Source: an uncultured Pelagibacteraceae bacterium (GTDB taxonomy: Bacteria; Pseudomonadota; Alphaproteobacteria; Pelagibacterales; AG-422-B15). From it: 64,000 nt of DNA. The position numbers and the translations under genes are program-made. Numbering within the stretch: the first letter of the stretch is position 1; each line of letters opens with the position of its first letter. Location of the stretch: positions 344 to 64,343 of the forward strand of contig CABYZG010000006.1 in assembly GCA_902523455.1 (NCBI GenBank), read 5' to 3'. Positions 1-30,781 of this stretch are shown here, in pieces. The notes below the pieces were generated by a model. That model searched no databases and was not told the DNA's origin. It saw nothing but the letters and a program-made list of their open reading frames with translations.

Positions 1-1
1 A

Positions 2-2806
2 TCTGGAACGGTTGGGGGTGACACAACTGGTACTCACGGTACACTTTCAATGAATGCAGATGGTACTTATTCTTATGCGGCAACTAACGATGCTCTTGAT
101 CCAAATGAACAAGTTGATGATGTTTTCACTTACACGGTAAAGGATGATGATAATAAAAACTCAAGTACTGCGACATTAACAATAACAGTAACTGGAGCAA
201 ATGACCCAATTACTGCGAATAATGATACGGATGCTGTAAATGCAGGATCTACAATTACTCGAAGTGAAAGTGATACACAAGAACTTGATCACAACGATAC
301 TGACCCTGATGGTGATGATGTATCAGGTAGCTTTACTATTACCAATATCAGACATGGTTCTGATGATTATAACCCTGGTCAAGAAATTACGACATCAAAA
401 GGTAGATTAACAGTCAATGCAAATGGTTCTTATACTTATGTAGCTGATCAAAACGGTTCAACAAGTCTAGGAAACGGTGTCGAAGCAGATGATGTCTTTA
501 CTTATACAGTAAGAGATCACAGTGGAGGAGATACAGACACTGCAACACTTACAATTACAATTACTGGTTCAAATAATACTCCTCCCGTTGCAGACAATGA
601 TGGTAACGCTGGAACGGGATACATTTTAGAAGATCAAACATTGACAGTTACGAATGGTTCTACTGGAGTTACCGGTCTCGACAGTAATAACAATAACGAA
701 AGTGGTGATAATACCGGGGATGTTCTAAATAACGATACCGATGCTAACGGTGATACACTTACTGTTTCAGCTATCTCAGGAGGATCAGTTGGAGCTGGAG
801 GTGCAACAGGAACATACGGAACATTAACCATTCAAAGTGATGGAAGCTATACCTACAATGCCAACAATGCAGACTCGATAGCAAAAGATACTACTGCAAC
901 TGATGTTTTCACATATACAGTCAGTGATGGCAATGGTGGCACAGATACTGCCACAATAACCATTACCATTTTAGGTGTGAATGATGCTCCAAGCGCAAGC
1001 AATGATACCAATGCTGTTGATGAAGATGCCACAGCAACAAAAACTGCTGGTACGGGAGTACTTTCAAATGATAGTGATGCTGATACAGGTTCAAGCATGA
1101 CGGTGACTGGAATTACTGGCGCATCAACAGGCTCAGTTGGTGGATCAACAGATGGAACTTATGGTACTCTGACCCTTAATTCTGATGGTAGTTATTCTTA
1201 TACTGCTGACAAAGCAGCCGCAGACCAATTGGCGCACAACGCTACGGCAAATGACGTATTTACTTACACAGTCACAGATAACGAGAACGCTACTGCCACT
1301 GCAACTTTGACTATTGTGGTAACCGGTAAGGGACCTGTTGGTTCAGCTGACACTGCTTCAGTCAATGAGAATGTTTTACTTGAAAAGAATGAAGCAGATG
1401 GCGTATTAACAAACGACTCAGGTGGAGATACTGAGAATTTGATTGTAACTAATATTTCATCTAATGACACCAGCAATACTGGCACTGCTGGTCAAGGTGT
1501 ATTAGGAACTTATGGTACTTTAACTATTAACGCTAATGGAAGCTATTCGTATACACCGGATACAGCCGCCGCAGAAGCTTTGGATAAAGATGATGTTGTT
1601 ACTGAGGTCTTTACCTATACGGTAAAAGATGACAATGGTGTTAATTCAAGTACTGCAACTCTTACATTTACAATAACTGGAGTAAATGATGCAATTGTAG
1701 CAGTTGATGATACAGATAGTGTCGATGAGGACGGTACAGTTACAAGATTAATCAGTGACGATCAAGAACTGGATCATGATGATACCGATGTTGATACAGA
1801 TGATGTAAGCGGAAGTCTTACAATTACAGACATAAGAACTGGTCCAAAAGATGGAACTGGAACTGATGGGACAGTAGGCGTGGCGCTAACTGGTGAATTT
1901 GGAACACTTACAGTTAATGCAGACGGTTCATATACCTATGTTGCTGATCAAGATAAATCAGATCAACTTACTACAGGTCAAACAGGCACAGATACATTCA
2001 CCTATACAGTTAGTGATGGAAATGACACTTCCACTGCTGAACTTTCATTTACTGTTACAGGTATCAATGATAACGATCCGGTTGCGGTAGACGACACTGA
2101 TACTGTAAATAGAGATGCAACTATAGATAGAACAAATGGGTCTGCATTTGATTTAGCTATTGATGATACAGATGCTGACAACGATACATTAACAATCACA
2201 GAAATTAGAAAAGGCAATAACAAAGGTGGGGGTGATGCTGGAACCATAGGACAACCACTGGTTGGTGAATATGGTACATTAACGTTACAAGCTGACGGCA
2301 GTTATAAATATGTTGCTGATCAAGACTCGATCAATAACCTTGGTCGTGGACAAAGTGTAATTGAGCATTTTAATTATACCGTATCTGACGGCTCAAGAAC
2401 TTCAACAGGACTGCTTTCAATAACTGTAAATGGCATTAGTGATCCACCTGTTCCAGTGGATGACACACTAGATATTGACGCTGGTGCGCAAACAGAAAAA
2501 GGGGCAAATCAAGGGGTATTGATAAATGATACTGACCCTGATGGAGATACTCTATCAGTAGACAGCATTAGAACTGGTCAAGAAAATAAAACGGGTACAT
2601 CAGGTACCATTGGTACAGCCTTACCTGGAACATATGGTGATTTAACGATGAATTCTGACGGCAGTTACATCTATCAAGCAAACAATGCAAAAGCACTAAA
2701 TCCAGGTGAAACTGCTACAGAATACTTTACTTATACTGCAACTGACGGCGAGTCCTCAGTTGAAGCTCAAATTGCAATTACTGTAACAGGTAAAAACGAT
2801 CCGCCT
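2..2806 (+). repeat. Tandem coding repeat array (VCBS-type units, period about 120-130 codons), with a higher-order similarity between units 1 and 5 at an offset of 1485 nt
   Basis: Unit signatures sit at regular spacing. QELDHNDTDPDGDDVSGSFTITNIRHG (from nt 278) and QELDHDDTDVDTDDVSGSLTITDIRTG (from nt 1763) are near-copies exactly 495 codons apart. Confidence 0.8.
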
Positions 2807-4180
2807 GAAGTCTTATATCCTGTTCGAGATCCAAATACCACTACTGGTACGCCATTCATAATCAGGCACAAACAGATCTTTGATGATCCAGACACAGGTA
2901 TTTATGATATAGCAGAATATAAAATTATTGACCCTGAAGATGGAACAGAGATAAGTCTTCCTGATGGATTAAGATTAAAGCAAAATAAAATTCATGGATC
3001 TATTAGCACACCTGGAACTTATTCAATCACAATTAGAGCAATTGATGGTGAAGGACTTTATGCTGATCATACGTTCACAATTACAGTAAATCCTAAACCA
3101 GGAGAAATGGTTGAAAAAGAGACATCTGATGAAGAACCAACGCCTCCATCCAAACCAATTGTAATTAAACCAAAAAAAGATTATTTAGCAGCTGTTCAAG
3201 AGACCATTACTGAGGCGCCAGTAATCAGCGATGATGGCTTTACTCTTGATACGATTTCAATTGCTGATACTGCTTCTCTTTCAAAACCGCTAAAATTTAA
3301 CGGTGGTTTGAGATTAATGGATGCTGTTGCAAACGAAGTTTCAGGCGATACAGAATCTGATCTAAAAGTTGGAGTTAAACTAAATGATGATAATCAGAAA
3401 AATGTAGAGTTGTATTCAGGTCAGCTCTCTAACGGTGAAGCTTTACCTGAATGGATTAGTGTCAATCCTGAAACTGGAGAAACAACAGCTGATATACCAG
3501 AAGGTGTTGAAGCGATTGAGGTTCAGTTGGTAGCGCTTGATAAGGACGGAAACACGAGAGATATTAATATTGTTTTAGATAAAGCTAAAATTAAGGGCGA
3601 CCAAGATTTCACGAGGGGAGCCGTTGATCAGGCAAGGGTAGTTGTTGATAATGATTCAAATGTAAACCTGATTAGAGAGAACAACAATGCATCTAGTAAT
3701 ACAGCAAATAATAATTTGAATGCTCAAACAGATTTTGAAGGCACCATGAAGCTAAGCAGTCTTCAAATGGATGCGGGCCAATACACAATAGACGTAATAG
3801 ATGATAACCAGTCAAATGTGAAAATGTATAAAGCTGAGTTAAAGGGCGGCGGCGAACTTCCTGATTGGATAACAATTGATCCAGAAACTGGAAAAATTGC
3901 TGCTGATCCTTCAAAAGGAAGAACAGGTTTAGCAGCTCCAGCTTTCTTAACCGAAAGCCTCCAAGTTCTCGAACTAAAAATTATTGCTGAAGACGAAGAT
4001 GGTAAAGAAAGAATTATTGAAGTTGAGATAGATCTCAATGAAATAACAGAAACTGAGTCAGATGTTGAAAATTCAGAGACAAATGATGAAGTTTCCTTCA
4101 TCCCACTTGATGAACAATTAAAGCTACACGCTAAAGTAGCAGATAGCTATGGCGAAAAGATTGTATCTCTAGTAAGTTAA
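2..4180 (+). CDS. Giant repetitive surface/adhesin-like protein, C-terminal part only (the 5' end lies upstream of the window). Contains 8 tandem VCBS/cadherin-like units, one Ig-like (dystroglycan/He_PIG-type) domain, two C-terminal cadherin-like repeats and an acidic tail
   Basis: The frame stays open back to nt 2. SGTVGGDTTGTHGTLSMNADGTYSY there matches the internal GTYGTLT.N.DGSY.Y repeat, so the M at nt 50 is not the start. The motif D.FTYTV.D..G...TA.LTITVTG.ND recurs 8 times, with NDTD.DGD calcium-site-like motifs. Twin repeats LPEWISVNPETGE and LPDWITIDPETGK are present. No GGxGxD RTX nonapeptides were seen. Confidence 0.85.
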   Translation, partial: SGTVGGDTTGTHGTLSMNADGTYSYAATNDALDPNEQVDDVFTYTVKDDDNKNSSTATLTITVTGANDPITANNDTDAVNAGSTITRSESDTQELDHNDTDPDGDDVSGSFTITNIRHGSDDYNPGQEITTSKGRLTVNANGSYTYVADQNGSTSLGNGVEADDVFTYTVRDHSGGDTDTATLTITITGSNNTPPVADNDGNAGTGYILEDQTLTVTNGSTGVTGLDSNNNNESGDNTGDVLNNDTDANGDTLTVSAISGGSVGAGGATGTYGTLTIQSDGSYTYNANNADSIAKDTTATDVFTYTVSDGNGGTDTATITITILGVNDAPSASNDTNAVDEDATATKTAGTGVLSNDSDADTGSSMTVTGITGASTGSVGGSTDGTYGTLTLNSDGSYSYTADKAAADQLAHNATANDVFTYTVTDNENATATATLTIVVTGKGPVGSADTASVNENVLLEKNEADGVLTNDSGGDTENLIVTNISSNDTSNTGTAGQGVLGTYGTLTINANGSYSYTPDTAAAEALDKDDVVTEVFTYTVKDDNGVNSSTATLTFTITGVNDAIVAVDDTDSVDEDGTVTRLISDDQELDHDDTDVDTDDVSGSLTITDIRTGPKDGTGTDGTVGVALTGEFGTLTVNADGSYTYVADQDKSDQLTTGQTGTDTFTYTVSDGNDTSTAELSFTVTGINDNDPVAVDDTDTVNRDATIDRTNGSAFDLAIDDTDADNDTLTITEIRKGNNKGGGDAGTIGQPLVGEYGTLTLQADGSYKYVADQDSINNLGRGQSVIEHFNYTVSDGSRTSTGLLSITVNGISDPPVPVDDTLDIDAGAQTEKGANQGVLINDTDPDGDTLSVDSIRTGQENKTGTSGTIGTALPGTYGDLTMNSDGSYIYQANNAKALNPGETATEYFTYTATDGESSVEAQIAITVTGKNDPPEVLYPVRDPNTTTGTPFIIRHKQIFDDPDTGIYDIAEYKIIDPEDGTEISLPDGLRLKQNKIHGSISTPGTYSITIRAIDGEGLYADHTFTITVNPKPGEMVEKETSDEEPTPPSKPIVIKPKKDYLAAVQETITEAPVISDDGFTLDTISIADTASLSKPLKFNGGLRLMDAVANEVSGDTESDLKVGVKLNDDNQKNVELYSGQLSNGEALPEWISVNPETGETTADIPEGVEAIEVQLVALDKDGNTRDINIVLDKAKIKGDQDFTRGAVDQARVVVDNDSNVNLIRENNNASSNTANNNLNAQTDFEGTMKLSSLQMDAGQYTIDVIDDNQSNVKMYKAELKGGGELPDWITIDPETGKIAADPSKGRTGLAAPAFLTESLQVLELKIIAEDEDGKERIIEVEIDLNEITETESDVENSETNDEVSFIPLDEQLKLHAKVADSYGEKIVSLVS

Positions 4181-4191
4181 TAAATACCTTT

Positions 4192-4911
4192 ATGAACAAA
4201 TTTGTAACATTTGCGGTAACAGCATGCTGTATATTATTGCCTTATATTTTGTCAGCAGAAGAATATTCTACACGTGTTTTAGTAACTGCAACCGAAGAGG
4301 CAACACTCTCAAGTGAACTTGCTGCAAAAGTTGAGTCAATTCCAATTGATGAAGGATCTAAATTTAAAGAGTCTGATATTTTAATTAAGTTTGATTGTTC
4401 ATTCTTTGAAGAACAAAGAAAAGTTGTTGAAGCACAATTAGAGAGCGCAAGAGTAACTCTAAAGAGCAATCAAGACCTTGCCTTGATGAGATCCATTGGT
4501 GAATATGAGGTTCATTTATCAGAAATCGATGTAAAGCGTGCAGAAGCTGAATTACAGATTGCTAAACTCAATACAGATCGATGCATAATTAAAGCCCCTT
4601 ACGATGGTAAAGTATCTAAAGTTTTTGTTAATGAGTTTGAGAGCATTGAAAGGCAGCAGCCATTGGTCGAAATCATTGGTTCTGGTATTCTTGAGGCCAA
4701 ATTGATTGTTTCAAGCAAATGGCTTGCTTGGATTGATGAGGGTTATCCAATGAAAATCAGCATTGATGAAAATGGACAAACATATAGCGCCAAAATTCAT
4801 ACTATCGGCGTTGATATTGATCCTGTTAGCCAAACCATCGACATTACTGCAAAATTTGATGAAAATTATGATACATTACTGCCAGGCATGAGTGGGACAG
4901 CAACGTTTTGA
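4192..4911 (+). CDS. Small secreted HlyD-family membrane-fusion (periplasmic adaptor) protein
   Basis: N-terminal signal peptide MNKFVTFAVTACCILLPYILSAEE. Split lipoyl-like halves (ATLSSELAAKVESIPIDEGSKF... and IIKAPYDGKVSKVFV) flank a short helical hairpin, followed by a beta-barrel-like C-terminus. It starts 11 nt after the adhesin stop. Confidence 0.6.
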   Translation: MNKFVTFAVTACCILLPYILSAEEYSTRVLVTATEEATLSSELAAKVESIPIDEGSKFKESDILIKFDCSFFEEQRKVVEAQLESARVTLKSNQDLALMRSIGEYEVHLSEIDVKRAEAELQIAKLNTDRCIIKAPYDGKVSKVFVNEFESIERQQPLVEIIGSGILEAKLIVSSKWLAWIDEGYPMKISIDENGQTYSAKIHTIGVDIDPVSQTIDITAKFDENYDTLLPGMSGTATF

Positions 4912-6245
4912 ATGATAATACTTCAATAAAAATAGCAAGATTAATTACTCTTGAGAAAAAATTTCGGACTGCAGAAAACTTATCCGAGCTAGGATTCGTT
5001 TGTGCAAATGAGTTAAGAAGTGTTGTTGATTATAATTTTTTATTTTTTCTTAATAAATCTGCAACAGGTCGACAGAAAGTCCAAACTATCTCTGATATTT
5101 CAGTCGTTGATAGAACAGCACCGACAGTTACTTTTGTTGAAAGATTAATAAATAAAAAGAAGGTTGAAACGGGAGTCTTTTCAGAAGTTTCAATTAGTGA
5201 TTTAAGAGAAGATGGTTCAAATTTAGACTTACCTGAAAATTTTCCAAATGAGTTAATGGTTGTTCCATTAATTTCAAGAACAAAGGGCGACTTAGGCTCT
5301 TTGGTCATTGTACGATCTGCTAAAGTTTCAAATTCAGAAAAAGAACTGTTGCAGCATATTGCTGAAACATTCAGCCATGCATTGGATTCATTTTTATCAA
5401 GAGGATCGGTAATACCATTTATTGGTAGAATTTTTTCAGGTTGGTTAAAGTGGTTAATATTATCAGCAATTGCACTTGCAATGTTTATGCCAATTAACAT
5501 ATCCGCAGTAGCTCCAGTCGAGGTTATCGCTAAAAATCCGTCAGTTGTTACATCGCCAGTAAACGGTGTAGTGAAAAAAGTATTAGTTAACACAAATGAT
5601 GCTGTTGATGTTGGTATGGAGCTTATAAAATTAGATGATCTCAATTTTAAATCTCAATATGAAATAAACTTACAGGAATTAGAAGTTGCTGAAGCAGAAT
5701 TACTTAGAGCCAAGCAATCCTCATTCACGAATGATGAGGCAAAAGCAAAGCTGGTTGAGCTATCAACTGAAGTTGCGTTGAAGAAAAAGCAAGTTGCTTA
5801 TGCCGAAGAACAATTAAAATATTCCGTTATTAAAGCAGAGGTTTCGGGAGTTGCAGTTGTTGAAGATTTTATTGATTGGCAAGGTCGTCCTGTAAATATA
5901 GGTGAAAAGATACTAACGATTGCCGACTCAAATGATATTGAGTTCTTAATTTACTTGCCAACAAAAGACTCACTATTTATTGAAAAATCAGCAAGAGTTA
6001 AAGTATTTTTGGACAGCAGCCCACTAAACTCAATTGAAGGTAAAATATTAAGAACTTCTTACAAACCTGAATTAACAGCTGAGAATATTTTAGCTTATAA
6101 AATTCATGCTAGCCTTGAGGATAATATTGATCCACCGCGTATTGGATTAAGAGGATCTGCAAAAATTTATGGAGATCGGACATCTCTTTTTTATTATATC
6201 TTCAGAGTTCCAATTAATATCAGTCGACAATTTTTGGGAATATAA
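4908..6245 (+). CDS. HlyD-family adaptor with an N-terminal cytoplasmic GAF-like domain and a single TM anchor
   Basis: The ATGA start/stop overlaps the previous gene. The N-terminal ~165 aa have a GAF-like pattern (ELMVVPLISRTKGDLGSLVIVRS...EKELLQHIAETFSHAL). The TM segment is WLKWLILSAIALAMFMPI. The adaptor part shows VTSPVNGVVKKVLV, a coiled coil, VIKAEVSGVAVV and a barrel. Confidence 0.65.
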   Translation: MNDNTSIKIARLITLEKKFRTAENLSELGFVCANELRSVVDYNFLFFLNKSATGRQKVQTISDISVVDRTAPTVTFVERLINKKKVETGVFSEVSISDLREDGSNLDLPENFPNELMVVPLISRTKGDLGSLVIVRSAKVSNSEKELLQHIAETFSHALDSFLSRGSVIPFIGRIFSGWLKWLILSAIALAMFMPINISAVAPVEVIAKNPSVVTSPVNGVVKKVLVNTNDAVDVGMELIKLDDLNFKSQYEINLQELEVAEAELLRAKQSSFTNDEAKAKLVELSTEVALKKKQVAYAEEQLKYSVIKAEVSGVAVVEDFIDWQGRPVNIGEKILTIADSNDIEFLIYLPTKDSLFIEKSARVKVFLDSSPLNSIEGKILRTSYKPELTAENILAYKIHASLEDNIDPPRIGLRGSAKIYGDRTSLFYYIFRVPINISRQFLGI

Positions 6246-8354
6246 ATGATTGTACCGTCTATTCGACAAGATTTAAAACTCAGTGAGGGACCCAAGAAAG
6301 AGGACGGTTCAGCGTCATGGCTTCTTTATGACTCCTTAAGAAATAAATACTTTTCGATAAATAAAAAAGCATTTGATCTTCTTAAAAATTGGTCAAGTGG
6401 AATTGAGACGACAGAATTTATTGAAAAAATAAAAAAAAGTAATCTGTCTATTACACAAGAAGAAATTGAAGAATTTATCAGTTTTCTGAATTTGAATAAT
6501 TTAACCATTAAAAAAACAGGTGATGAAGTTAAATCTTTAGTTGTTCAAAAAGAGAAACTTAACAAACACTGGCTGTTAAAAATTATTCATAATTATTTGT
6601 TCTTTAAAATTCCAATATTTAAACCAGGAAATGGTCTTGAAAACAGTTTACCTTTTGCATTGTTTCTCGGATCGCAAACCAGCAGACTTATAATTTATAT
6701 TCTGGGGATCATTGGTATTTTTTTAACAATCCAAAACTATGAAACATTTTTAACAACATTTTCTTATTTCTTTAATCTTAATGGATTGATTTTGTTTGGT
6801 GTAACGATTGTTTTTGTAAAAGCCTTGCACGAACTAGGGCATGCATATGTTGCCACTTATTATAAATGTAAAGTTTCTTCAATTGGTCTTGCAATGCTGG
6901 TTTTTTTCCCCTTCTTGTACACAGATACAACCGATGCTTATAAATTAACTGATCATCGAAAACGCTTACTGATTAATTTTGCTGGCATGCTGACTGAATT
7001 GCATCTTGCCCTTCTTGCTACATTTGTTTGGGCTGTAAGCCCTGAAGGCATTATCAAAAGTGCTTCATTTTTTATTGCAACTTCAAGCTGGATATCATCA
7101 CTTCTAATTAATATTAGCCCGTTTATGCGATTTGACGGTTACTATGTGCTCTCAGATTTTCTTAAAGCGGAAAATCTTCAACCGCGCTCTTTTGCTTTAG
7201 GTCGATGGCAGATTAGAGAATGGATCTTTGGATTTAAATTCCAACCACCGGAACAGCTCATGAGTCAAAGACGGTGGACTTTCATCATTTACGCTTGGAT
7301 GACATGGATATATCGCTTCTTCATATTTATTGGAATTGCCTTATTGGTTTATTATTTAACATTCAAAATTCTTGGCATAATTCTGTTCATTATTGAGATT
7401 GTTTGGTTCATTTTACTACCAATTTGGAGAGAAATTAAACAGTGGTGGGGACTTAGAAGGTACATGCGTTTTAATTGGACTTCTTTAAGATCAATTTTTA
7501 TTTTCTCAGTATTTTTGGCAGCAATGTTAGTGCCATGGCGAAGTTCACTCAGTCTTCCAGCGGTGATTGATCGAGGTGAAGTGGTTGATATCTATCCAAC
7601 AGAGGATTCTGAGATAAAAGAGATTTTTGTTATTTCAGATCAACAAGTCGAAAAGGGTGATTTATTAATTACTATGATGAGTCCTTCTTTATCAAATAAA
7701 GTTGATAAAGCAATTGAGCGCGTAAAGATGATACAGCAAAAACTAGATCGTCGAATTGGATCAGAGGCTGATATGAGTAATCTCATGGTGTTAGAAAACC
7801 AATTAAAAGTAGAATTTGAAATTCTTAAAAGTCTTAAAGAAGAAAATGAAAATCTATCAATTTATGCACCAATGAGTGGGGTGATAAAAGATCTTAAGTA
7901 CTTAAATAATGGACAGTGGGTGAATATAAAAGAAAAACTATTTTCTATTGTTCAATTCAATGACACTAAAGTTGTTGCATTTATAAGCGAGAATGATTTG
8001 GACAAACTTGAAGGTAATACAAGCGGCTATTTTGTTCCAAAAAATAATGAATTTGATGAAGCAGAAGTTGTCTTGGTTTCACAAAATAATACATCAACAG
8101 AAGAACTTCCCTACTTATCACTAGTATCCACTTTTGGTGGATCAATTGCATCACGTGAAGTTAAGGGAGATGGAAAAGTTGTTTATCGACCAGAAGAAGC
8201 TTTGTACCAGCTTAATTTTTCTACTAGTACAGAAGTTGAGACTGTTCAATGGCAAACAGCAGGTAAAGTAAAAATTCAGACTGAAAACTATAATATTTTT
8301 CAAAATTTATTTAATTTGATTTCTTCAACGTTAATCAGAGAAAGTGGATTTTAG
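6246..8354 (+). CDS. Fusion protein: PqqD/RRE-like N-terminus, polytopic M50 (site-2-protease family) zinc metalloprotease core and a C-terminal HlyD-like adaptor region
   Basis: HELGH at 6828-6842 and NISPFMRFDG (the M50 NxxPxxxxDG motif) at 7110-7139 lie among multiple hydrophobic segments. The C-terminal part shows IYPTEDSEIKEIFV, a coiled coil and IYAPMSGVIKDL, which is an adaptor lipoyl/hairpin layout. The start abuts the previous stop with a 0-nt gap. Confidence 0.75.
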   Translation: MIVPSIRQDLKLSEGPKKEDGSASWLLYDSLRNKYFSINKKAFDLLKNWSSGIETTEFIEKIKKSNLSITQEEIEEFISFLNLNNLTIKKTGDEVKSLVVQKEKLNKHWLLKIIHNYLFFKIPIFKPGNGLENSLPFALFLGSQTSRLIIYILGIIGIFLTIQNYETFLTTFSYFFNLNGLILFGVTIVFVKALHELGHAYVATYYKCKVSSIGLAMLVFFPFLYTDTTDAYKLTDHRKRLLINFAGMLTELHLALLATFVWAVSPEGIIKSASFFIATSSWISSLLINISPFMRFDGYYVLSDFLKAENLQPRSFALGRWQIREWIFGFKFQPPEQLMSQRRWTFIIYAWMTWIYRFFIFIGIALLVYYLTFKILGIILFIIEIVWFILLPIWREIKQWWGLRRYMRFNWTSLRSIFIFSVFLAAMLVPWRSSLSLPAVIDRGEVVDIYPTEDSEIKEIFVISDQQVEKGDLLITMMSPSLSNKVDKAIERVKMIQQKLDRRIGSEADMSNLMVLENQLKVEFEILKSLKEENENLSIYAPMSGVIKDLKYLNNGQWVNIKEKLFSIVQFNDTKVVAFISENDLDKLEGNTSGYFVPKNNEFDEAEVVLVSQNNTSTEELPYLSLVSTFGGSIASREVKGDGKVVYRPEEALYQLNFSTSTEVETVQWQTAGKVKIQTENYNIFQNLFNLISSTLIRESGF

Positions 8355-8428
8355 TGGTGCCCCTAGCTGGTTACGCTCCAGCGGCTGATCATTACCAATG
8401 ACCTGCTTTACTATTAAGCGATAGGGGC
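8355..8428 (-). tRNA. tRNA-Thr(GGU)-like 74-nt cloverleaf with encoded CCA and non-canonical D- and T-loops. It may be a divergent tRNA, a tRNA mimic or a pseudogene
   Basis: The minus strand reads GCCCCTA TC GCTT AATAGTA AAGC A GGTCA TTGGTAA TGATC AGCC GCTGG AGCGTAA CCAGC TAGGGGC A CCA. All four stems pair, with one G-U. The anticodon loop is TT-GGT-AA. The D-loop lacks the GG pair and the T-loop lacks TTC. The element is a GC-rich island in AT-rich DNA. Confidence 0.5.
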
Positions 8429-8438: not shown

Positions 8439-9200
8439 TTACTCTTTTGTACCATAGCCTTTTGTGATAGCAATTGCCACGCCAGCAACACAAATGCTTA
8501 AGAAAGCAACTAAAGAAATTACACTGACCCAGATATTAATATCAGATGCCCCGTAAAAGGACCATCTCATGCCATTCACAAGATATAAAACTGGATTAAA
8601 GTAAGTTACATTTTGCCAAAATTCTGGAAGCATTTCTACGGTGTAAAGACTACCACCTAAAAAAACTAAAGGGGTGACGATGATAAGTGGCACAACTTGC
8701 AACTGTTCAAAATTTTCACTGAGCAATCCAATAAGAAATCCAAAAAGACTAAATGTAAGACATGTTAATACCAGAAGAAAAAGCATTAATAAGGGATATT
8801 GAATTTCTAGTTCAACAAAGAAAGTTGCAGTAATGAGTATAATGACACCAACAATAAGTGATTTAGTTGCACTGGCTCCAACAAATCCTATGATAATTTC
8901 TAAAGAGGAAATAGGTGCCGCAAGGACTTCATAAATCGATCCGGTAAATTTTGGAAAAAATATTCCAAATGAAGAGTTAGATATACTTTGAGTTAACAAA
9001 GTCAGCATCAATAAACCAGGTACGATGAATGACCCATAACTGACACCTTCAATTTGCGGAATCATACCCCCAATAACTGAACCAAATACAATGAAATATA
9101 AAGAAGTCGAAAGCACGGGCGAAAGCACACTTTGGAAAAGGGTTCTTCTCATTCGATCCATTTCATGAAAATAAATTGCTCTGATTGCGTAAAAATTCAT
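8439..9200 (-). CDS. ABC-2 type transporter permease
   Basis: 253 aa with about 6 hydrophobic segments and an ABC-2/YadH-like layout. It overlaps the upstream ATPase gene by 1 nt. Confidence 0.8.
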   Translation of the reverse strand: MNFYAIRAIYFHEMDRMRRTLFQSVLSPVLSTSLYFIVFGSVIGGMIPQIEGVSYGSFIVPGLLMLTLLTQSISNSSFGIFFPKFTGSIYEVLAAPISSLEIIIGFVGASATKSLIVGVIILITATFFVELEIQYPLLMLFLLVLTCLTFSLFGFLIGLLSENFEQLQVVPLIIVTPLVFLGGSLYTVEMLPEFWQNVTYFNPVLYLVNGMRWSFYGASDINIWVSVISLVAFLSICVAGVAIAITKGYGTKE

Positions 9201-10123
9201 TATTTTTCCTTTACCAGTTCCACAAAGATCTTTTCAAGTGAACTTTGCTCTGTATTTAAATCTTTTAGTTTTAATCCAGCTTCTTTCATATCTTGTAAGA
9301 GAGATGTTATTCCAGTTTGTTTACTTTGTGTATCGTATTGGTAATCAATTGATAATCCATCATTAACTATTGTAAGTTTATAATTTTTTAGTGACTCAGG
9401 TAATGTCTTAACTGTTTCATGTAAATCAATTGTTAGAGTTTTCTGGCCTAAACTTTTTATTAAATTGGATGTTTCATCAACTACTATCATTTCACCTTTA
9501 TTAATGACTGCAACTCGGTCAGCTATTGCTTCTGCTTCTTCTATATAATGGGTTGTCAAAATTATTGTAACACCTTTATCTCTTAAATTCTTGATGACTT
9601 CCCACATGTCTTTTCTTAATTCGACATCAACACCAGCTGATGGCTCATCAAGAAATAAGACTGAAGGCTCATGAGAAAGAGCTTTAGCAATCAAGACGCG
9701 TCTTTTCATTCCTCCAGAAAGCTCATTAATTTTGGAGTCTTTTTTATCCCACAAACTTAAATCTTTTAGTATTTTTTCAATATACTGAGGATTAGGAGGC
9801 TTACCATATAAGCCTCTAGTATAGGATACGTTGTTATAAACAATTTCAAATTGTTCTAAGGTTAGCTCCTGAGGTACAAGTCCAATTTGTGACCTAGTTT
9901 TTCTATAATCTTTAATAATATCGTAGTTACCAACCTCAACTGTCCCAATACTTGGTGTTACAATTCCACAGATAATACTAATCAAAGTTGTTTTTCCTGC
10001 ACCATTAGGTCCAAGAAGTGCAAATATTTCATTCTGTTTGATATCTAAATTAATATTATTGAGTGCCTGAAATTCATTACTGTAAGTTTTAGATAAATTT
10101 TTTACTGAGACGACATTTTGCAT
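9200..10123 (-). CDS. ABC transporter ATP-binding protein (ABC-2 subfamily partner)
   Basis: Walker A GPNGAGKTT, signature LSGGMKRR, Walker B LFLDEPSAGVD. Confidence 0.9.
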   Translation of the reverse strand: MQNVVSVKNLSKTYSNEFQALNNINLDIKQNEIFALLGPNGAGKTTLISIICGIVTPSIGTVEVGNYDIIKDYRKTRSQIGLVPQELTLEQFEIVYNNVSYTRGLYGKPPNPQYIEKILKDLSLWDKKDSKINELSGGMKRRVLIAKALSHEPSVLFLDEPSAGVDVELRKDMWEVIKNLRDKGVTIILTTHYIEEAEAIADRVAVINKGEMIVVDETSNLIKSLGQKTLTIDLHETVKTLPESLKNYKLTIVNDGLSIDYQYDTQSKQTGITSLLQDMKEAGLKLKDLNTEQSSLEKIFVELVKEK

Positions 10124-10531: not shown

Positions 10532-12037
10532 ATGTCAGTTTTAGATCGTTTCAGTGAAATCAGTTCAAAAATTTACATGGGTGGTAAATTTTATAAAAGT
10601 CAATCAACAGACTCAATTGATGTGATTGACCCTGCAACCGAAAATAAAATTGGAGAAATTCCTGAAACTTCACAATCTGAAATTGATGAAGTTGTATCTA
10701 TTGCGAACAAAGCTCATAAGGCTTGGAATCAAAAATCTCCACTTGATCGAAGTCATGTCCTCCATGAAGTTGCAAATAAAATGGGTGAAATGGCACCACT
10801 ATTTGCTGAAGCTCTGACAAGAGAAATGGGAAAACCCTACAAGGAGTCAATGGATGAAGTTCATTGGAGTATTCACAATATTCGTTTTTATGCAGAGATG
10901 GGCAGAGGTGAAACAGGAAAAGTTATAGGCTCTGCTGTTGAAGGACAGTTTCATTACACACTCAAACAACCTTTGGGTACATGCGTCTTAATCTTACCAT
11001 TTAATTATCCAATGGTGTTACTTGCATGGGAAGCAAGTGCCGCTTTGGCTGCGGGAAATGCTGTCATTATCAAGCCTTCACAATACACATCTCTAACTAC
11101 ACTGTTATTTGCTGAAGCTTTCAAGGCATTACCAGATGGATTATTTCAAGTTGTAACAGGTGAAGCTGCTGCTGGAAAATCATTAGTTGAGCACAAAGAT
11201 ACGCATATGGTTGCATTTACAGGCAGCGTTCCAGTTGGAGTAAGCATTGCTTCCAAGTGTGGTGAACTTATGAAAAGATCATTAATTGAAAATTCTGGAA
11301 ATGACCCCTTCATTGTTATGCCATCAGCTCCTATGGACATCACTGCACGAGCAGCAGCGTTTTCTGCATATATGAATTGTGGACAAATATGTGTTTCAGC
11401 TGAAAGATTTTTTGTGCATGAAAAAATTCATGATGAGTTTGTTGAAAAATTAATTGAAGAAACAAAAAAGATTAGAGTTGGTAATGGTCTTGATAAGGTA
11501 GATATGGGTCCAATTGTTTCATCAAAAGAGAGAGACCGATACGAGAATGTTTTACGCAAAGCTTTAGATGAAGGCGCAAAAGCTGTTGAGGGTGGAGGGC
11601 GACTAAGTCAGTTTAATAAAGGCTGGTTTGTTGCACCAACTGTCCTGGTTGATTGCAATGATGAAATGAGTATATTTAACAATGAAAGCTTTGGTCCAGT
11701 TGCGCCAATTTGTAAAGTATCTAGTTTTGAAGAGGCTATGGAGAAAGCAAATAACTCTAGATATGGACTTGGTGCTAACATTTATACAAAAGATTTATCA
11801 GAGGGAATTCGTGCTTCAGAACAATTCCAGGCAGGAATGGTTTGGGTAAATGCGCCGTTGCTTGATAATGATGCTGGCCCTTTTGGAGGAACAAAACTCT
11901 CTGGTATGGGTCGACAATTAGGTGCGGAGGGATTAGAGACATTCAGAGATACCAAGACTGTGATGATTGATCCTGATTGTCAGCCACAAGATTTCTGGTG
12001 GTTTCCGTATTCTGACGAGGAAATGTATAAGAAATAA
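10532..12037 (+). CDS. NAD(P)-dependent aldehyde dehydrogenase family protein
   Basis: 501 aa. ALDH motifs FTGS..VG, the IENSGNDP region (equivalent to ELGGKSP) and the catalytic Cys region NCGQICVSAERF. Confidence 0.9.
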   Translation: MSVLDRFSEISSKIYMGGKFYKSQSTDSIDVIDPATENKIGEIPETSQSEIDEVVSIANKAHKAWNQKSPLDRSHVLHEVANKMGEMAPLFAEALTREMGKPYKESMDEVHWSIHNIRFYAEMGRGETGKVIGSAVEGQFHYTLKQPLGTCVLILPFNYPMVLLAWEASAALAAGNAVIIKPSQYTSLTTLLFAEAFKALPDGLFQVVTGEAAAGKSLVEHKDTHMVAFTGSVPVGVSIASKCGELMKRSLIENSGNDPFIVMPSAPMDITARAAAFSAYMNCGQICVSAERFFVHEKIHDEFVEKLIEETKKIRVGNGLDKVDMGPIVSSKERDRYENVLRKALDEGAKAVEGGGRLSQFNKGWFVAPTVLVDCNDEMSIFNNESFGPVAPICKVSSFEEAMEKANNSRYGLGANIYTKDLSEGIRASEQFQAGMVWVNAPLLDNDAGPFGGTKLSGMGRQLGAEGLETFRDTKTVMIDPDCQPQDFWWFPYSDEEMYKK

Positions 12038-12081
12038 ATTGAAAATTTAAAAAGAATTTTTATTTAACTTAATACATTTTT

Positions 12082-12522
12082 ATGAGAACAGTTGTACTAA
12101 TTATAGTTGCATTAATTATTGCTTTTTTTCTATATCAGGCCTTTAGTAATCAAACGATAGAAGAAGAAGTTGCTCAAGCTCAAAAGCCAATTCATCCTGA
12201 AACTATAGTCGCTTATCAAAATAATTGTGCTTCTTGTCACGGGGTTAATTTACAGGGTCAAGAAGGTTGGCAAAATACTCTAGATGAAGATGGACATCGG
12301 CTAGCACCACCATTAAATGGTACTGGTCACACGTGGCACCATTCACCAGAATATTTATTTCAAGTTATTAAATATGGCTTTCCAAGTTTCGATCCAAATT
12401 ATGAGGGAAAGATGCTTGGCAATGATAGTTTAAGTGAAGATGAGGTTTGGCAGCTGATTACTTACATCAGACAAGAATGGCCAGTACAAATACAAGATGT
12501 CTATAACAGTAGATATGAGTAA
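12082..12522 (+). CDS. Membrane-anchored mono-haem c-type cytochrome
   Basis: N-terminal TM segment, then a single CxxCH haem motif (CASCHG). Confidence 0.75.
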   Translation: MRTVVLIIVALIIAFFLYQAFSNQTIEEEVAQAQKPIHPETIVAYQNNCASCHGVNLQGQEGWQNTLDEDGHRLAPPLNGTGHTWHHSPEYLFQVIKYGFPSFDPNYEGKMLGNDSLSEDEVWQLITYIRQEWPVQIQDVYNSRYE

Positions 12523-12528
12523 ACGCTG

Positions 12529-12990
12529 TTACCAGTCAAAAAACCCATGAACACCAGTTTCTCCACGGTAATATTCAATATTACTTGCAGCCATCTCATA
12601 GCCAACAACTGCAAGGTCCTCGATATTTTGGGTTTCTATTTTCATTTTTCCAGTAACATAAACAGGTTCCCACCACGCTAAACCTTCCCATGGGTTTTCT
12701 GCTTCAACATAAACCAGTTGATTAGGTGCTGGAGGTGGAACATGAATGCATGCTCCAATATATGGAACCAACAGAAAGCTATTCACTCCCCGTCCAAATG
12801 TATCTAAAGGAAGAACATATCCTGGTATTTTAACTTCTTTATCAACCAAGCTTTTGTTGAATTTTACTTCTCCGGGACTAAAGACTGAAGTCCATGGAAT
12901 CAAATCGTCCCAGTCTATTTCTTTGGGAACAGCATATGCGGCGGTTGTGATAAATAATAAAAGTAATATTAAATATTTTAATTTACTCAT
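12529..12990 (-). CDS. Secreted DUF3299-like protein, last gene of the Zrg-like zinc ABC operon
   Basis: Signal peptide MSKLKYLILLLLFITTAAYA. It overlaps the permease gene by 1 nt. The family assignment is by recollection of DUF3299 neighbours of FtsX-type ABC systems. Confidence 0.55.
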   Translation of the reverse strand: MSKLKYLILLLLFITTAAYAVPKEIDWDDLIPWTSVFSPGEVKFNKSLVDKEVKIPGYVLPLDTFGRGVNSFLLVPYIGACIHVPPPAPNQLVYVEAENPWEGLAWWEPVYVTGKMKIETQNIEDLAVVGYEMAASNIEYYRGETGVHGFFDW

Positions 12991-14240
12991 CAGATTTTGA
13001 TTGTCATTCCATCATTTATTGAAAACCAGTACGCCCTAATTGCAGGCAATAAGCTGACTAGTATAGATGCAAAAATAAATGTCATAAAAACATACATATC
13101 TCGTAAAGATAACATTTCAACATTCACCAAAATACCATAATTATAATCGATCCAAGGTTGTAAGATAGATAATGAGAAGAATAATAAAATAACACTTAAC
13201 AATATACTAAGCACTGAAATAAAAATTGCCTCAAGCATCAAGAGCCCAACAACAGTTCTAGGTGATGCTCCCATGGCCCTCCAAATTGCCATTTCTCGTC
13301 TTCTTTCACTTAAACTTGAAAACATGATAGCTGTCATGCCAATCAATGTTGTAAATATGACAACAATTGATATCCCCAACAATAAATTTTCAACCACACC
13401 AACAACACGCCAGAGTTCCTGCAGCGCTGCACCAGGTAGAATCGCTGTCATTGCTTCCTCAGGGTACTCATTAATCCATCGTTGAAGATTAAAGATTGTT
13501 AATTTTGATTTCACTCCAATGAGAGCGGCGGTAATATTTTTAGGAGTAAGATCCATTTTTCGGATTTCTTCGATGGGCGTTTCTTGCCCAGGAATTTTTG
13601 CTCCAGTAGACCAATCAACATGTATTGCTTCAATTGCAGCCAAACTCACAATCACAGTATTGTCTACTGGCGTACCCGTTTTTTCCAATATTCCAGAAAC
13701 TCTGAATGGTTGATCGTCATGCTCTGAAAATGATTGAAGGCCATGCGCTACGATTAGCGGCGTGTCTATGTCATATCCTAGTTTTTCAGCTACTCCAGCA
13801 CCCAACACTACGTCATAAAGATCTTCAAATAAGTATCCTTTATCAATATTAATTGATTGACCACCTCTATACTTATAACGAGCAAAGAAATCTTTATTTG
13901 TTCCCATAACCCGAAAACCTTTATGGCTGTCACCAAGTGAAATTGGCACTGCCCAATCAACTTCTTCTTTATTCACAATATCCAAGTAGCTTTCCCAGGT
14001 GATGTTATTGGTTGCATTGCCAATCCTAAATACAGAGTAGAGCATCAATTGAACTGAGCTTGCTCTTGCACCAATAATTAAGTCTGTTTGAGAAATTGTA
14101 TCTGTAAAACTTGTGTAAGCAGATGTTCTTAATTTTTCTACACTCATGTAAAGCATTAGAGAAAAAGAAATTGCAATAACGGTCATGCCTACAGTTACTA
14201 GTCTTGCGTAGAGAGAGCTCAATGAAAGTTTTAACAACAT
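12990..14240 (-). CDS. zrgC: FtsX/MacB-like ABC transporter permease (ZrgC-like)
   Basis: 416 aa. One N-terminal TM, a large periplasmic domain and a C-terminal FtsX-type TM bundle. It sits in an operon with an ATPase and a DUF2796-like protein. Confidence 0.7.
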   Translation of the reverse strand: MLLKLSLSSLYARLVTVGMTVIAISFSLMLYMSVEKLRTSAYTSFTDTISQTDLIIGARASSVQLMLYSVFRIGNATNNITWESYLDIVNKEEVDWAVPISLGDSHKGFRVMGTNKDFFARYKYRGGQSINIDKGYLFEDLYDVVLGAGVAEKLGYDIDTPLIVAHGLQSFSEHDDQPFRVSGILEKTGTPVDNTVIVSLAAIEAIHVDWSTGAKIPGQETPIEEIRKMDLTPKNITAALIGVKSKLTIFNLQRWINEYPEEAMTAILPGAALQELWRVVGVVENLLLGISIVVIFTTLIGMTAIMFSSLSERRREMAIWRAMGASPRTVVGLLMLEAIFISVLSILLSVILLFFSLSILQPWIDYNYGILVNVEMLSLRDMYVFMTFIFASILVSLLPAIRAYWFSINDGMTIKI

Positions 14241-14242
14241 AT

Positions 14243-14929
14243 CTAATCTTCTCGGGTTAACACTTCATTGATATCTATTAATCGATCAAATCGTTCAGCA
14301 AGAGATTTATCATGAGATACCATAAGTAAAGTTGATTTGTTATTCGAAATCTGTTCAAACATGAGGTCTAAAAAAATTTGTTGTGCATCTGTATCTAGCG
14401 AAGATGTGGGTTCATCTGCAATAACTAAGGAAGGATTGCCTATCAATGCTCTTGCCACGGCTACTCTTTGTTGCTGCCCAACACTAAGACTACTTGCTTT
14501 ATATTGATCAATATCATCAGGTAATCTCAATTGTTTGCAAATATTTAAGGCCGATTCTCTTTGATTAGTTACATTAGCAGATCTTACTTTTGAGAAATAA
14601 AGAGGCAGAACAATATTATCTATAACATTTGCATATGGGAGTAGATTAAATTGCTGAAAAATAATACCTATATTATCTGCTCGATGTTCATCTTTAGTTT
14701 TAGAAGAAAGCTTATTTATCGTACTTCCATTAATTGATATGCTTCCAGATAAAGGGTTTAAAAACCCACAAATTAATGAAAGAAGAGTTGTCTTGCCTGA
14801 GCCACTCTCTCCCAATAAAAGAACCTTTTCACCTTTATTGATCTCGAAATTGGGGACAAATATTTTAAAGCTACTTTTTTTTGACCAATGAAATCTTACA
14901 GAGTCAATTTTAATAATATTTTCATCCAA
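14243..14929 (-). CDS. zrgB: ABC transporter ATP-binding protein (ZrgB-like, MacB/LolD type)
   Basis: Walker A GESGSGKTT, signature LSVGQQQRV, Walker B VIADEPTSSLD. Confidence 0.8.
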   Translation of the reverse strand: MDENIIKIDSVRFHWSKKSSFKIFVPNFEINKGEKVLLLGESGSGKTTLLSLICGFLNPLSGSISINGSTINKLSSKTKDEHRADNIGIIFQQFNLLPYANVIDNIVLPLYFSKVRSANVTNQRESALNICKQLRLPDDIDQYKASSLSVGQQQRVAVARALIGNPSLVIADEPTSSLDTDAQQIFLDLMFEQISNNKSTLLMVSHDKSLAERFDRLIDINEVLTRED

Positions 14930-15559
14930 TTAGATTTTTCCTTTTAAGTCTATGAAAGGCCTATCTCCTTCCACTTCAAAACTCGTGGATCCAACTTCAG
15001 ATACAAATTGTATTTCAAGCTCTCCAGAGTTAGGAAAAGTAGTAAAATATGGAAAGTCTATTCTGTCAATTTCTTTTACATTACCGCATGTAAATGAATA
15101 GTGAGCAACAAACTCATTATGAGCTTCTTCCTCATGTTCATCATGATTGTGCTCATCCTCGTGATCGTGCTCATCTTCATGCTCATGCTCATCTTCATGA
15201 TCGTGCTCATCTTCATGATCATGCTCATCTTCATGATCATCTCCCTGATTTATGTCAATTTCAGCATCGACTAAATTACAATTTCCACTGCTAGATAAAG
15301 TAAAGATGTTTTCAAAATCTTGAAATTTGGAAAGAGCTGTATTTACCAATGCTATATCACTATCACTTTTTGCTTCATACTCGAACCCAACAATATCTGC
15401 GCCAGGTATCATAAACTCTAGATTTATGGCACTGCCTTCTACAGCAATATTTAACTCACCGACCCCATGTTCATGCTTGTCAACTTGCCTTGTTTCTTCT
15501 GCGGCTGCAACTGACATCATCGCAGACATTAATAGTGAATAGTAGATACTTTTTTTCAT
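14930..15559 (-). CDS. zrgA: Periplasmic His/Asp/Glu-rich metal-binding protein (DUF2796/ZrgA-like)
   Basis: Signal peptide, then the acidic His tract GDDHEDEHDHEDEHDHEDEHEHEDEHDHEDEHNHDEHEE. It is the first gene of the operon, directly downstream of a Zur-box palindrome. Confidence 0.65.
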   Translation of the reverse strand: MKKSIYYSLLMSAMMSVAAAEETRQVDKHEHGVGELNIAVEGSAINLEFMIPGADIVGFEYEAKSDSDIALVNTALSKFQDFENIFTLSSSGNCNLVDAEIDINQGDDHEDEHDHEDEHDHEDEHEHEDEHDHEDEHNHDEHEEEAHNEFVAHYSFTCGNVKEIDRIDFPYFTTFPNSGELEIQFVSEVGSTSFEVEGDRPFIDLKGKI

Positions 15560-15616
15560 TTTATCTCCTGAGAATTTTTTAAAAATCTTATTGAAAAAAT
15601 ATTTAGGTGTCTAGAA

Positions 15617-15637
15617 AAATGTTATTTTATAACATTT
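15617..15637. promoter_or_regulatory. Zur-box candidate upstream of the zrgA-like operon
   Basis: Perfect palindrome AAATGTTAT-TTT-ATAACATTT, 57 nt upstream of the zrgA-like start and 5 nt past the zur stop. Confidence 0.6.
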
Positions 15638-15642
15638 ATATT

Positions 15643-16065
15643 TTAATGCTTCGTATTTTCAATTTGTTTATTTTTACAAGATTTACAAGTTCCAAAAAAC
15701 TCTAAATTATATCCATCAAATACTGTTCCATCTTTATCTCTAAAATCTTTTAAATTTTTAAATAGTTTTGGATCATTGATTTCAGAGACAATTTCACAAG
15801 AATTACAAATAGAAAAAACAGTTTTATGGGGTGTGCCACAGTTTGAAATTTTACAAGCAACAAATGAATTTTGACTCTCAACTCGATGAATTTTTCCAAT
15901 TTTAATTAATTTGTCTAATGCTCTGTAAACTTGGGGAGGTGCATTAATTCCTTTTTTTTGAACATTAGATAAGATTGAATATGCTTTAACAGGCTTTTTA
16001 TTCTTCTGAATGAAGTCCAAAACAATTTTTTGATTTTTTGATAATGATTTACTCTTCTTATCCAT
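15643..16065 (-). CDS. zur: Fur-family zinc uptake regulator
   Basis: 140 aa with a winged-helix N-terminus and paired CxxC motifs (CNSC, CKSC). It is the last gene of the znuC-znuB-zur overlap chain. Confidence 0.8.
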   Translation of the reverse strand: MDKKSKSLSKNQKIVLDFIQKNKKPVKAYSILSNVQKKGINAPPQVYRALDKLIKIGKIHRVESQNSFVACKISNCGTPHKTVFSICNSCEIVSEINDPKLFKNLKDFRDKDGTVFDGYNLEFFGTCKSCKNKQIENTKH

Positions 16066-17600: not shown

Positions 17601-17622
17601 TAAAAACTTGCTATTAAAAATT

Positions 17623-17637
17623 TGTTATATTATAACA
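17623..17637. promoter_or_regulatory. Zur-box candidate in the divergent znuC/znuA intergenic region
   Basis: Perfect palindrome TGTTATA-T-TATAACA, 22 nt from the znuC start and 33 nt from the preferred znuA start. Confidence 0.65.
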
Positions 17638-17670
17638 CTATACTCAATTATTAATGAAAGCAATTATACT

Positions 17671-18744: not shown

Positions 18745-18762
18745 TTCTACAAAATATTTTTC

Positions 18763-30623: not shown

Positions 30624-30699
30624 GGCTCGATAGCTCAGTTGGTAGAGCAAAGGACTGAAAATCCTTGTGTCGGTGGTTCAATTCCACCTCGAGCCACCA
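30624..30699 (+). tRNA. tRNA-Phe (GAA), CCA encoded
   Basis: Canonical cloverleaf GGCTCGA TA GCTC AGTTGGTA GAGC A AAGGA CTGAAAA TCCTT GTGTC GGTGG TTCAATT CCACC TCGAGCC A CCA. Confidence 0.95.
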
Positions 30700-30704
30700 C
30701 TTAT

Positions 30705-30781
30705 GCAGCTGTAGCTCAGTTGGTTAGAGCGCCTGGTTGTGGTTCAGGAGGTCGGTAGTTCGAATCTACCCAGCTGTACCA
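30705..30781 (+). tRNA. tRNA-His (GUG), CCA encoded, with no encoded G-1, a G1-U72 pair and A73
   Basis: GCAGCTG TA GCTC AGTTGGTTA GAGC G CCTGG TTGTGGT TCAGG AGGTC GGTAG TTCGAAT CTACC CAGCTGT A CCA. The base preceding G1 is T. Confidence 0.95.

Follow-up and report, generated by a model that had tools for sequence, protein, structure and literature searches.

A conserved tRNA-Thr(GGU) gene with an altered elbow in a Pelagibacterales lineage and in TMED127, apparently also an attachment site of small integrative elements

The locus and its tRNA gene

The window analysed here is a stretch of 64,000 nucleotides (nt) from an uncultured Pelagibacteraceae bacterium (SAR11 lineage; GenBank assembly GCA_902523455.1, contig CABYZG010000006.1, positions 344 to 64,343). 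Near its left end it contains a 74-nt element which folds as a complete cloverleaf with a GGU anticodon, and which lies between the genes of an ABC-2 transporter and a convergent gene for an M50 protease fused to an HlyD domain (Table 1). Read from 8428 to 8355 on the minus strand, the sequence is GCCCCTA-TC-GCTT-AATAGTA-AAGC-A-GGTCA-TTGGTAA-TGATC-AGCC-GCTGG-AGCGTAA-CCAGC-TAGGGGC-A-CCA, with stems of 7, 4, 5 and 5 base pairs and a discriminator A followed by an encoded CCA. The first-pass annotation, made from the letters of the window, had described this 74-nt cloverleaf with its stems and loops, the GGT triplet, the A and CCA end and the spacings of 10 and 0 nt to the two flanking genes, and the sequence bears it out on each of these points.

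Table 1. Coordinates of the tRNA gene, its parts, the flanking genes and the genes of one integrative element
Feature	Position	Strand	Basis and remarks
tRNA-Thr(GGU) gene, 74 nt, CCA encoded	8355-8428	-	Rfam RF00005, minimum free energy fold, covariation in orthologues
Anticodon GGT	8394-8396	-	In the loop TTGGTAA (8392-8398), with U33, G35, U36 and A37; read from the sequence
D-loop AATAGTA (A14, A15, U16, A18, G19, U20, A21)	8409-8415	-	Rfam alignment
T-loop AGCGTAA (A54, G55, C56, G57, U58, A59, A60)	8371-8377	-	Rfam alignment
Variable loop AGCC, 4 nt	8383-8386	-	Read from the sequence
5' 38 nt of the tRNA gene, the part copied at island borders or carried by integrase elements	8391-8428	-	
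Presumed crossover core ATTGGTAAT	8391-8399	-	3'-half copies in L273 begin there
ABC-2 permease open reading frame	8439-9200	-	Pfam PF01061; stop codon 10 nt ahead of tRNA position 1
ABC ATPase	9200-10123	-	Pfam PF00005; upstream, same strand as the tRNA
M50 protease/HlyD fusion open reading frame	6246-8354	+	Pfam; convergent; its stop TAG ends at 8354 and abuts the terminal A of CCA at 8355
Cluster of a cadherin-like giant protein and HlyD proteins, including the M50/HlyD fusion	50-8354	+	Pfam
Integrase of L218 (JGI24004J15324_10002035, 1-8039)	6006-7271	-	Unit of about 7.2 kb
DUF5906/VapE primase-helicase of L218, 751 aa	1125-3380	-	

The element scores 50.9 bits against the Rfam tRNA model RF00005 (E = 5.7e-8 over the whole window), and the alignment spans model positions 1-71 of 71, the match covering 8358-8428 of the window. 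Because the gathering score of the model is 29, the element at 8355-8428 is taken, from its sequence, to be a genuine tRNA gene. Its minimum free energy structure is the cloverleaf itself (-27.8 kcal/mol, z = -3.07), and none of 200 shuffled sequences is as stable. Its G+C content is 53%, against about 34% for the window. U8, A14, U33, a purine at 37, a 7-nt anticodon loop, the discriminator and CCA are present, and invariant in all 11 sequence variants of the gene that are described below. The proposal of the first-pass annotation that the element is not a random hairpin thus finds support in the Rfam score, in the stability of the fold and in the covariation of its orthologues.

Conservation and covariation

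One genome per species, for 185,579 species, was scanned with the pattern TTGGTAA-N12-13-GGAGCGTAACC. The scan returned 79 loci, about 65 of which carry a full tRNA of this kind, while the remainder are non-tRNA chance matches. The scan loci and ten loci fetched by means of the ABC-2 protein gave an alignment (A1) of 77 copies, with 11 distinct sequences that fall into five main types. Tested only in part, because it was fixed by the search pattern, is the invariance of the T-loop AGCGTAA. Among the 79 hits, tRNA-shaped sequences that combine AGCGTAA with a GGT anticodon loop occur only in genomes of SAR11 type and of TMED127.

The first-pass annotation had suggested that orthologous loci be compared for compensatory changes. 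The element is conserved in relatives, and 11 of its 21 stem pairs have changed on both sides among the 11 distinct sequences, with covariation in all four stems. Standard pairs occupy 99.6% of the pair cells of the alignment; the observed covariation score is reached by none of 500 shuffles, and slid alignment registers drop to 26-46% paired. Such changes are also seen at short range: in strain L007, which belongs to the window's own population, two pairs of the anticodon stem have changed on both sides in a compensatory way, and a second strain has an A-U pair in place of G-U.

The loops have remained constant. The D-loop is AATAGTA throughout, save for AATAGCA in two variants, and the variable loop AGCC, the anticodon loop TTGGTAA, A73 and CCA show no variation in the 11 variants. 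When metagenomes were scanned for this D-arm and anticodon loop combined with a base other than G at position 53, no full-length tRNA came up, only partial copies and chance matches. Because the loop set is constant while the stems change by compensation, the odd elbow (the region where the D- and T-loops meet) appears to be a conserved state under selection and not a product of decay.

Distribution in two orders

The window's sequence (type 1) and type 3 belong to Pelagibacterales. Type 2, which is 70% identical to type 1, is found in about 25 species, whose hosts include the metagenome-assembled genomes (MAGs) MED652, MED715 and TMED13 (type-2 loci within L013-L086). These three have been placed in the order TMED127 of the Genome Taxonomy Database (GTDB), also called 'Methylaequorales', which comprises deep-branching, streamlined (about 1.5 Mb) marine alphaproteobacteria (PMC12542740), and TMED13 has served as an outgroup for SAR11. 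The assignment of the type-2 hosts to TMED127 is based on the three named MAGs and on their common gene context. The names of the proteins at type-2 loci gave no more than generic labels (Rickettsiales, Alphaproteobacteria, Rhodospirillaceae). A provisional guess that the hosts were HIMB59/AEGEAN-169 was dropped, since the three host MAGs are listed as TMED127. The members of this order are lanthanide-dependent marine methylotrophs, and the tRNA with the odd elbow is a core gene there.

The gene has a stable context in each group. In TMED127, the order is dCTP deaminase, a GltS-like gene (539 aa), the tRNA and dihydroorotase (for example in L057, where the tRNA lies at 5021-5094 on the minus strand), and the position of the tRNA is kept even where the flanking proteins have diverged to about 60% identity. 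In type 1 of SAR11, the tRNA lies between ABC-2 and M50, and the identity of the flanking proteins ranges from 100% to 62-86%. Because the context has stayed stable despite diverged flanking proteins, the tRNA would be a long-resident core gene in both groups and not cargo. Its presence in both TMED127 and SAR11 may be due either to descent or to ancient transfer.

Within Pelagibacterales, the window lineage is not Pelagibacter sensu stricto, because the orthologues from HIMB5 and from 'Candidatus Pelagibacter sp.' are only 72% (ABC-2) and 49% (M50) identical to those of the window. In HIMB5 and in the other Pelagibacter loci with an orthologue of either gene there is no adjoining tRNA, and synteny located no tRNA-Thr(GGU) in them.

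An altered elbow

In the Rfam alignment, the D-loop AAUAGUA stands against the consensus AaUGGUA: G18 is replaced by A and G19 is kept, so that a single G remains. The T-loop AGCGUAA stands against UUCgAaU, and C56 and R57 are all that it keeps of the motif TTCRANY, with A54, G55 and U58 at the substituted positions. The elbow thus has A18/G55 for G18/Psi55 (Psi, pseudouridine), A54/U58 for T54/A58, and A15/C48 at the Levitt position, while G19-C56, G53-C61 and the purine at 57 are kept, and positions 59 and 60 are both A. By inspection, the D- and T-loops have no complementary run apart from G19-C56 that would allow an alternative Watson-Crick 'kissing' of the two loops. The canonical elbow has a contact between U55 and G18 and a C56-G19 pair, with bases 59 and 60 flipped out; the sole exception named for position 54 is the eukaryotic initiator, which has A54-A58 (PMC7912444). 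The tRNA-Phe and tRNA-His genes of the window have canonical GG and TTC loops and encode CCA, which indicates that the deviation is specific to tRNA-Thr(GGU).

It can be envisaged that A54 and U58 remain paired, in reversed Hoogsteen or Watson-Crick geometry, and close a mini-loop of three bases, G55-C56-G57, and that A18 occupies the stacking place of G18. In that case the tRNA would keep its L-shape and outer stacking surface, and would lose the substrates of the m5U54, Psi55 and Gm18 modifications. The kept G19-C56 pair would provide the surface on which RNase P, the ribosome and other partners stack.

No prior description of such an elbow was found in a literature search. It is tentatively proposed that this alternative elbow, with A18/G55, a swapped A54/U58 and A15/C48, works in an essential elongator tRNA of free-living bacteria. 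It might be an old derived character, since the loop set is fixed in the SAR11 lineage and in TMED127 while the stems have diverged at 11 pairs.

Threonine identity and decoding

The identity set of the Escherichia coli threonyl-tRNA synthetase (ThrRS) consists of G1-C72, C2-G71, G35 and U36. G1-C72 is found in all 11 variants of the gene and C2-G71 in ten, the other one having U2-G71. G35 and U36 are invariant, as is A37, the site of t6A in tRNAs that read ANN codons. In the long open reading frames of the window, ACT and ACC account for 47% of the threonine codons.

Complete Pelagibacter genomes have 30-36 tRNAs, with a mean of 32.1 (bioRxiv 10.64898/2026.04.03.716430), which is near one tRNA per required anticodon and therefore makes a redundant GGU copy unlikely. 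No second threonine tRNA was found in the window with ARAGORN and Rfam, nor with ARAGORN in about 0.9 Mb of SAR11 and TMED127 DNA (L001-L089 and the window). Judging from genome streamlining and from these tRNA counts, the gene is probably the sole GGU isoacceptor of the genome.

The gene very probably encodes a functional elongator tRNA-Thr(GGU), the ordinary decoder of ACC and ACU in this SAR11 lineage. Among the options put forward in the first-pass annotation, that of a divergent but chargeable tRNA-Thr is thereby preferred, because all four stems covary, the anticodon loop does not vary, and both the ThrRS identity pairs and CCA are present. The tRNA would be transcribed with the ABC-2 transporter operon or just behind it, and trimmed by RNase P and 3' exonucleases, the CCA being already encoded. 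ThrRS would charge it through G1-C72, C2-G71, G35 and U36, and the charged tRNA would read ACC and ACU. Annotation pipelines based on Infernal presumably report the gene as tRNA-Thr.

Several observations weigh against an ordinary decoding role. ARAGORN gives no call for the gene in the window, and the Rfam score is about 20 bits under those of the neighbouring tRNAs (74.8 bits for tRNA-Phe and 68 bits for tRNA-His). G18, T54, Psi55 and A58, four near-universal tertiary positions, are absent, and given their absence the normal function of the tRNA is not guaranteed. Cultured SAR11 isolates are missing from the 79 genome hits. The feature is therefore not pan-SAR11 in its exact form, and its distribution is patchy, or was under-sampled by the search pattern.

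The failure of ARAGORN and the non-canonical loops are also what could be expected of a decaying pseudogene, or of a cloverleaf formed by chance in a GC-rich spacer. Of the five sequence types, ARAGORN misses three (type 1 of the window and types 3 and 4, at loci including L020, L042 and L079), and it calls the orthologous types 2 and 5 as tRNA-Thr(ggt); among the three that it misses, type 1 is the one that was run through Rfam, where it lies far over the threshold. A pseudogene or a chance fold is hardly compatible with 11 of 21 pairs compensated, with almost all alignment cells paired, with loops identical across two orders and with the Rfam E value, so that the probability left to it is negligible.

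Another explanation is that of a specialised extra tRNA-Thr: a canonical GGU copy would decode, and the copy with the altered elbow would serve tRNA-dependent amino-acid transfer, in the manner of the staphylococcal cell-wall tRNA-Gly, or regulation. An elbow without T54, Psi55, A58 and G18 fits this idea, all the more since, among bacterial tRNAs whose T-loops deviate, the best known are non-proteinogenic. Genomes of this group, however, have about 1.3 Mb and about 32 tRNAs, and the gene is a core gene which keeps its position in two orders. Neither the anticodon loop nor A37, which is compatible with t6A, shows any variation, the searches described above revealed no other threonine tRNA, and no aminoacyl-tRNA transferase, of Fem type or other, is found among its neighbours in the window. 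A specialised extra copy is therefore improbable. The first-pass annotation had considered that the element would be uninteresting if it were the genome's only, normally scoring tRNA-Thr(GGU). It is probably the only one, but its scoring is not normal (50.9 bits against 68-75 bits) and its odd elbow is conserved.

An attachment site for integrative elements

Strains which have the same ABC-2 protein differ in what lies beside the tRNA. In L002, L006 and L009 (10950-15800), a complete urease cluster (ureDABCEFG) is found between ABC-2 and the tRNA. In L008, an island of 8.4 kb (10811-19242) occupies the same place, and carries an MmeI-type restriction-modification gene and a PLD/helicase gene. 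In L004, three genes (a methyltransferase trio, 10847-12723) lie on the other side, between the tRNA and M50. Two side observations concern the urease cluster. Urease is a nitrogen-acquisition trait, which seems to be island-borne here. Rfam also reports the Helicobacter family '5' ureB sRNA' (RF02514, 103-105 bits) antisense to a urease gene in L002 (12515-12800, minus strand) and in L009 (12514-12799, minus strand); these matches are most likely a by-product of the conserved ureB coding sequence, and not a real sRNA.

The borders of the islands carry pieces of the tRNA gene. In L008, the 5' 38 nt of the tRNA, which reach to the end of the anticodon loop, recur in exact form beside ABC-2 at 10773-10810, and the intact tRNA (19243-19316) is at the far end of the island. 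On about 21 contigs from the metagenome scan, these 38 nt are fused to unrelated DNA. In L218, L233 and L251, a P4-type tyrosine integrase gene (Arm-DNA-bind_3, Phage_int_M and Phage_integrase domains) starts at most about 200 nt from the 5'-half copy, on the same strand, and L218 and L251 also encode a DUF5906/VapE primase-helicase. In L218, two copies of the 5' 38 nt bound the unit at a distance of 7,245 nt, and over 794 nt the two contig ends are 93% identical, which points to a circle or a tandem array. The L218 unit thus appears to be a small integrative element of SAR11, tycheposon- or satellite-like, in circular or tandem form. In L002, L006 and L008, the DNA that precedes the intact tRNA is similar to the DNA just ahead of the 5' halves on the elements, and the islands of these three strains therefore end in an element arm.

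L273, a short metagenome contig, contains one 5'-half copy (1535-1572, minus strand) and two 3'-half copies (1773-1816 and 3516-3561, plus strand). Both 3' halves begin at ATTGGTAAT; each is preceded by a conserved arm of about 60 nt (ggatattctttca...gatattcaagaa), and a run of T comes after it. Since the 3'-half copies begin at ATTGGTAAT, the crossover would take place in the anticodon loop. The occurrence of partial copies of both polarities suggests that more than one element family is involved, or that these are old integration arrays.

It therefore appears that the tRNA-Thr gene is an active attachment site of elements which encode a P4-type integrase and a VapE-like primase-helicase. The elements would recombine within ATTGGTAAT and bring their own 5' 38 nt, and would so rebuild an intact gene. 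In the window, the site seems to be unoccupied: no tRNA fragment of at least 13 nt is found elsewhere in it, and the only exact match of at least 11 nt is a chance 12-mer at 330-341. The window likewise has no repeat of either half of the tRNA, in contrast with the direct repeat of the 3' half that the first-pass annotation had envisaged.

A viral origin, or a phage attP, was considered and rejected: IMG/VR gave no match for the 3' half of the tRNA and none for the specific 5'-half pattern, a looser 16-nt pattern gave chance matches only, and a blastn search against 50,697 phage records gave only two chance matches of 23-26 nt. The tRNA-Thr attP reported for relatives of HTVC106P-type pelagiphages could not be tied to this gene.

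Such heavy use for integration, with copies of 5' and 3' halves, adjacent integrases and variable islands, could mean that the sequence is maintained for or by mobile elements, as a mimic or a tRNA-like attachment site, and takes no part in decoding. Yet the tRNA is also kept, with full covariation, in the TMED127 genomes, and the metagenome scan detected no partial copies of their type. Integrases need only the core of the anticodon stem-loop, which leaves the acceptor identity pairs, the T-arm, A73 and CCA unexplained, and the elements rebuild an intact gene, as expected of an essential target. The mimic is accordingly very improbable, even more so than a specialised extra tRNA.

Related proposals of the first-pass annotation fare in various ways. 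A tRNA mimic or processing signal of the ABC-2 operon does not agree with the occurrence of the same gene behind urease or restriction-modification islands, and beside unrelated genes in TMED127. A relic attachment site finds no support either, the gene being intact and under purifying selection. The expectation of islands at the 3' end of the tRNA holds in so far as the gene is an integration hot spot; in the clearest events, on the other hand, the island lies 5' of the gene, and it is the element that supplies the 5' 38 nt, with the crossover in the anticodon loop. As to the adhesin locus, which was thought to be such a 3' island, the cadherin/HlyD/M50 cluster is a conserved neighbour and no insertion at the tRNA, and it also occurs in Pelagibacter, where the tRNA is absent from its side.

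Flanking genes and other observations

Neither a promoter nor a terminator of the tRNA's own was detected, as no promoter-like or terminator signal above chance is found nearby. With this lack of a promoter-like site and the 10-nt gap, co-transcription of the tRNA with the ABC-2 operon is probable. In strains where an island parts the two, it is element-derived DNA, and not ABC-2, that precedes the tRNA. An identical ABC-2 permease is encoded on many marine contigs, among them nanopore contigs of 0.8-1.3 Mb and Pelagibacteraceae single-cell genomes.

On the other side, the M50/HlyD fusion adjoins the tRNA in most type-1 loci, and no tRNA lies alongside the Pelagibacter M50 orthologues. The cluster that it belongs to (also at L309/L310, 1-8103) begins with a giant protein of cadherin-like repeats, followed by two HlyD-family proteins and then by the M50/HlyD fusion. 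At 1,376 aa in the window, the giant protein is shorter than in sister strains, where it exceeds 2,300 aa, and than in Pelagibacter, where its length is 6,339-9,101 aa. The cadherin/HlyD/M50 cluster is kept from the window lineage to Pelagibacter, with M50 proteins that are 49% identical, and is an unusual arrangement of secretion type.

The tRNA-His of the window (30705-30781, plus strand) has no encoded G-1 (the base at -1 is T), a G1-U72 pair, A73 and an encoded CCA. We take it to be the atypical form described for the alphaproteobacterial clade that includes SAR11, and it lends independent support to the taxonomic placement of the window. A SAR11 origin also agrees with the aldehyde dehydrogenase cluster, which bears the name Pelagibacterales, and with the tRNA-Phe/His pair. 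The pair of tRNA-Phe and tRNA-His genes (30624-30781, plus strand) matches the conserved left boundary of the universal hypervariable region of Pelagibacter (bioRxiv 10.64898/2026.04.03.716430), so that the window takes in the beginning of that region together with its origin-proximal flank.

Significance

The elbow formed by the T- and D-loops is the most conserved part of tRNA, and serves as a handle for RNase P, the ribosome, the CCA-adding enzyme and modification enzymes. A stable natural elongator in which G18, T54, Psi55 and A58 are replaced would offer a ready test of which elbow contacts are required. The hosts are among the most abundant bacterial groups of the ocean. Annotation based on ARAGORN would report such genomes without tRNA-Thr(GGU), which could be misread as a sign of an incomplete genome or of unusual decoding.

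If the proposed elbow is real, it may provide a rare structural marker for the relations of streamlined marine alphaproteobacteria, or a sign of the ancient transfer of a tRNA gene. The state common to SAR11 and TMED127 may be of use as a rare marker within a strongly disputed part of the alphaproteobacterial tree. The attachment site would add a SAR11 counterpart to the island-building integrase/primase elements of Prochlorococcus.

Comparison with known systems

The elements at the attachment site resemble the tycheposons of Prochlorococcus and P4- or PICI-like satellites, which have a tyrosine recombinase and a primase/helicase of VirE/VapE type and integrate at tRNA genes with partial copies; tycheposons likewise have a variable cargo (restriction-modification and nutrient genes) and a streamlined marine host (bioRxiv 10.1101/2020.12.28.424599). 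The likeness is one of gene content and of integration site. The elements described here differ from tycheposons in their SAR11 host, and in that it is the tRNA's 5' half that the best-resolved cases carry, with the island upstream of the gene.

As for the tRNA, the staphylococcal tRNA-Gly devoted to the pentaglycine bridge of the cell wall is another bacterial tRNA whose T-loop departs from GTPsiC. The staphylococcal molecules are extra isoacceptors in a Gram-positive host and work with Fem transferases, whereas the present gene belongs to a minimal genome and has no such enzyme in its vicinity, and in the DNA examined it is a core gene without a second copy.

The eukaryotic cytoplasmic initiator tRNA-Met, the widely cited case of a replaced U54 (PMC7912444), has A54 and A60 in common with the present tRNA. 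The initiator keeps Psi55, (m1)A58 and the A54-A58 pair, whereas the tRNA described here, a bacterial elongator, has G55 and U58 together with G1-C72 and a GGU anticodon.

The canonical bacterial tRNA-Thr(GGU), represented by E. coli thrT and thrV, differs from the present one at the elbow and around it: the latter has A18, A54-G55 and U58, A60 in place of Y60, A15/C48 in place of G15-C48, a 7-nt D-loop and a 4-nt variable loop. The two are alike in the cloverleaf, in G1-C72 and C2-G71, in the series U33-G34-G35-U36-A37, in the encoded CCA and in the G19-C56 pair.

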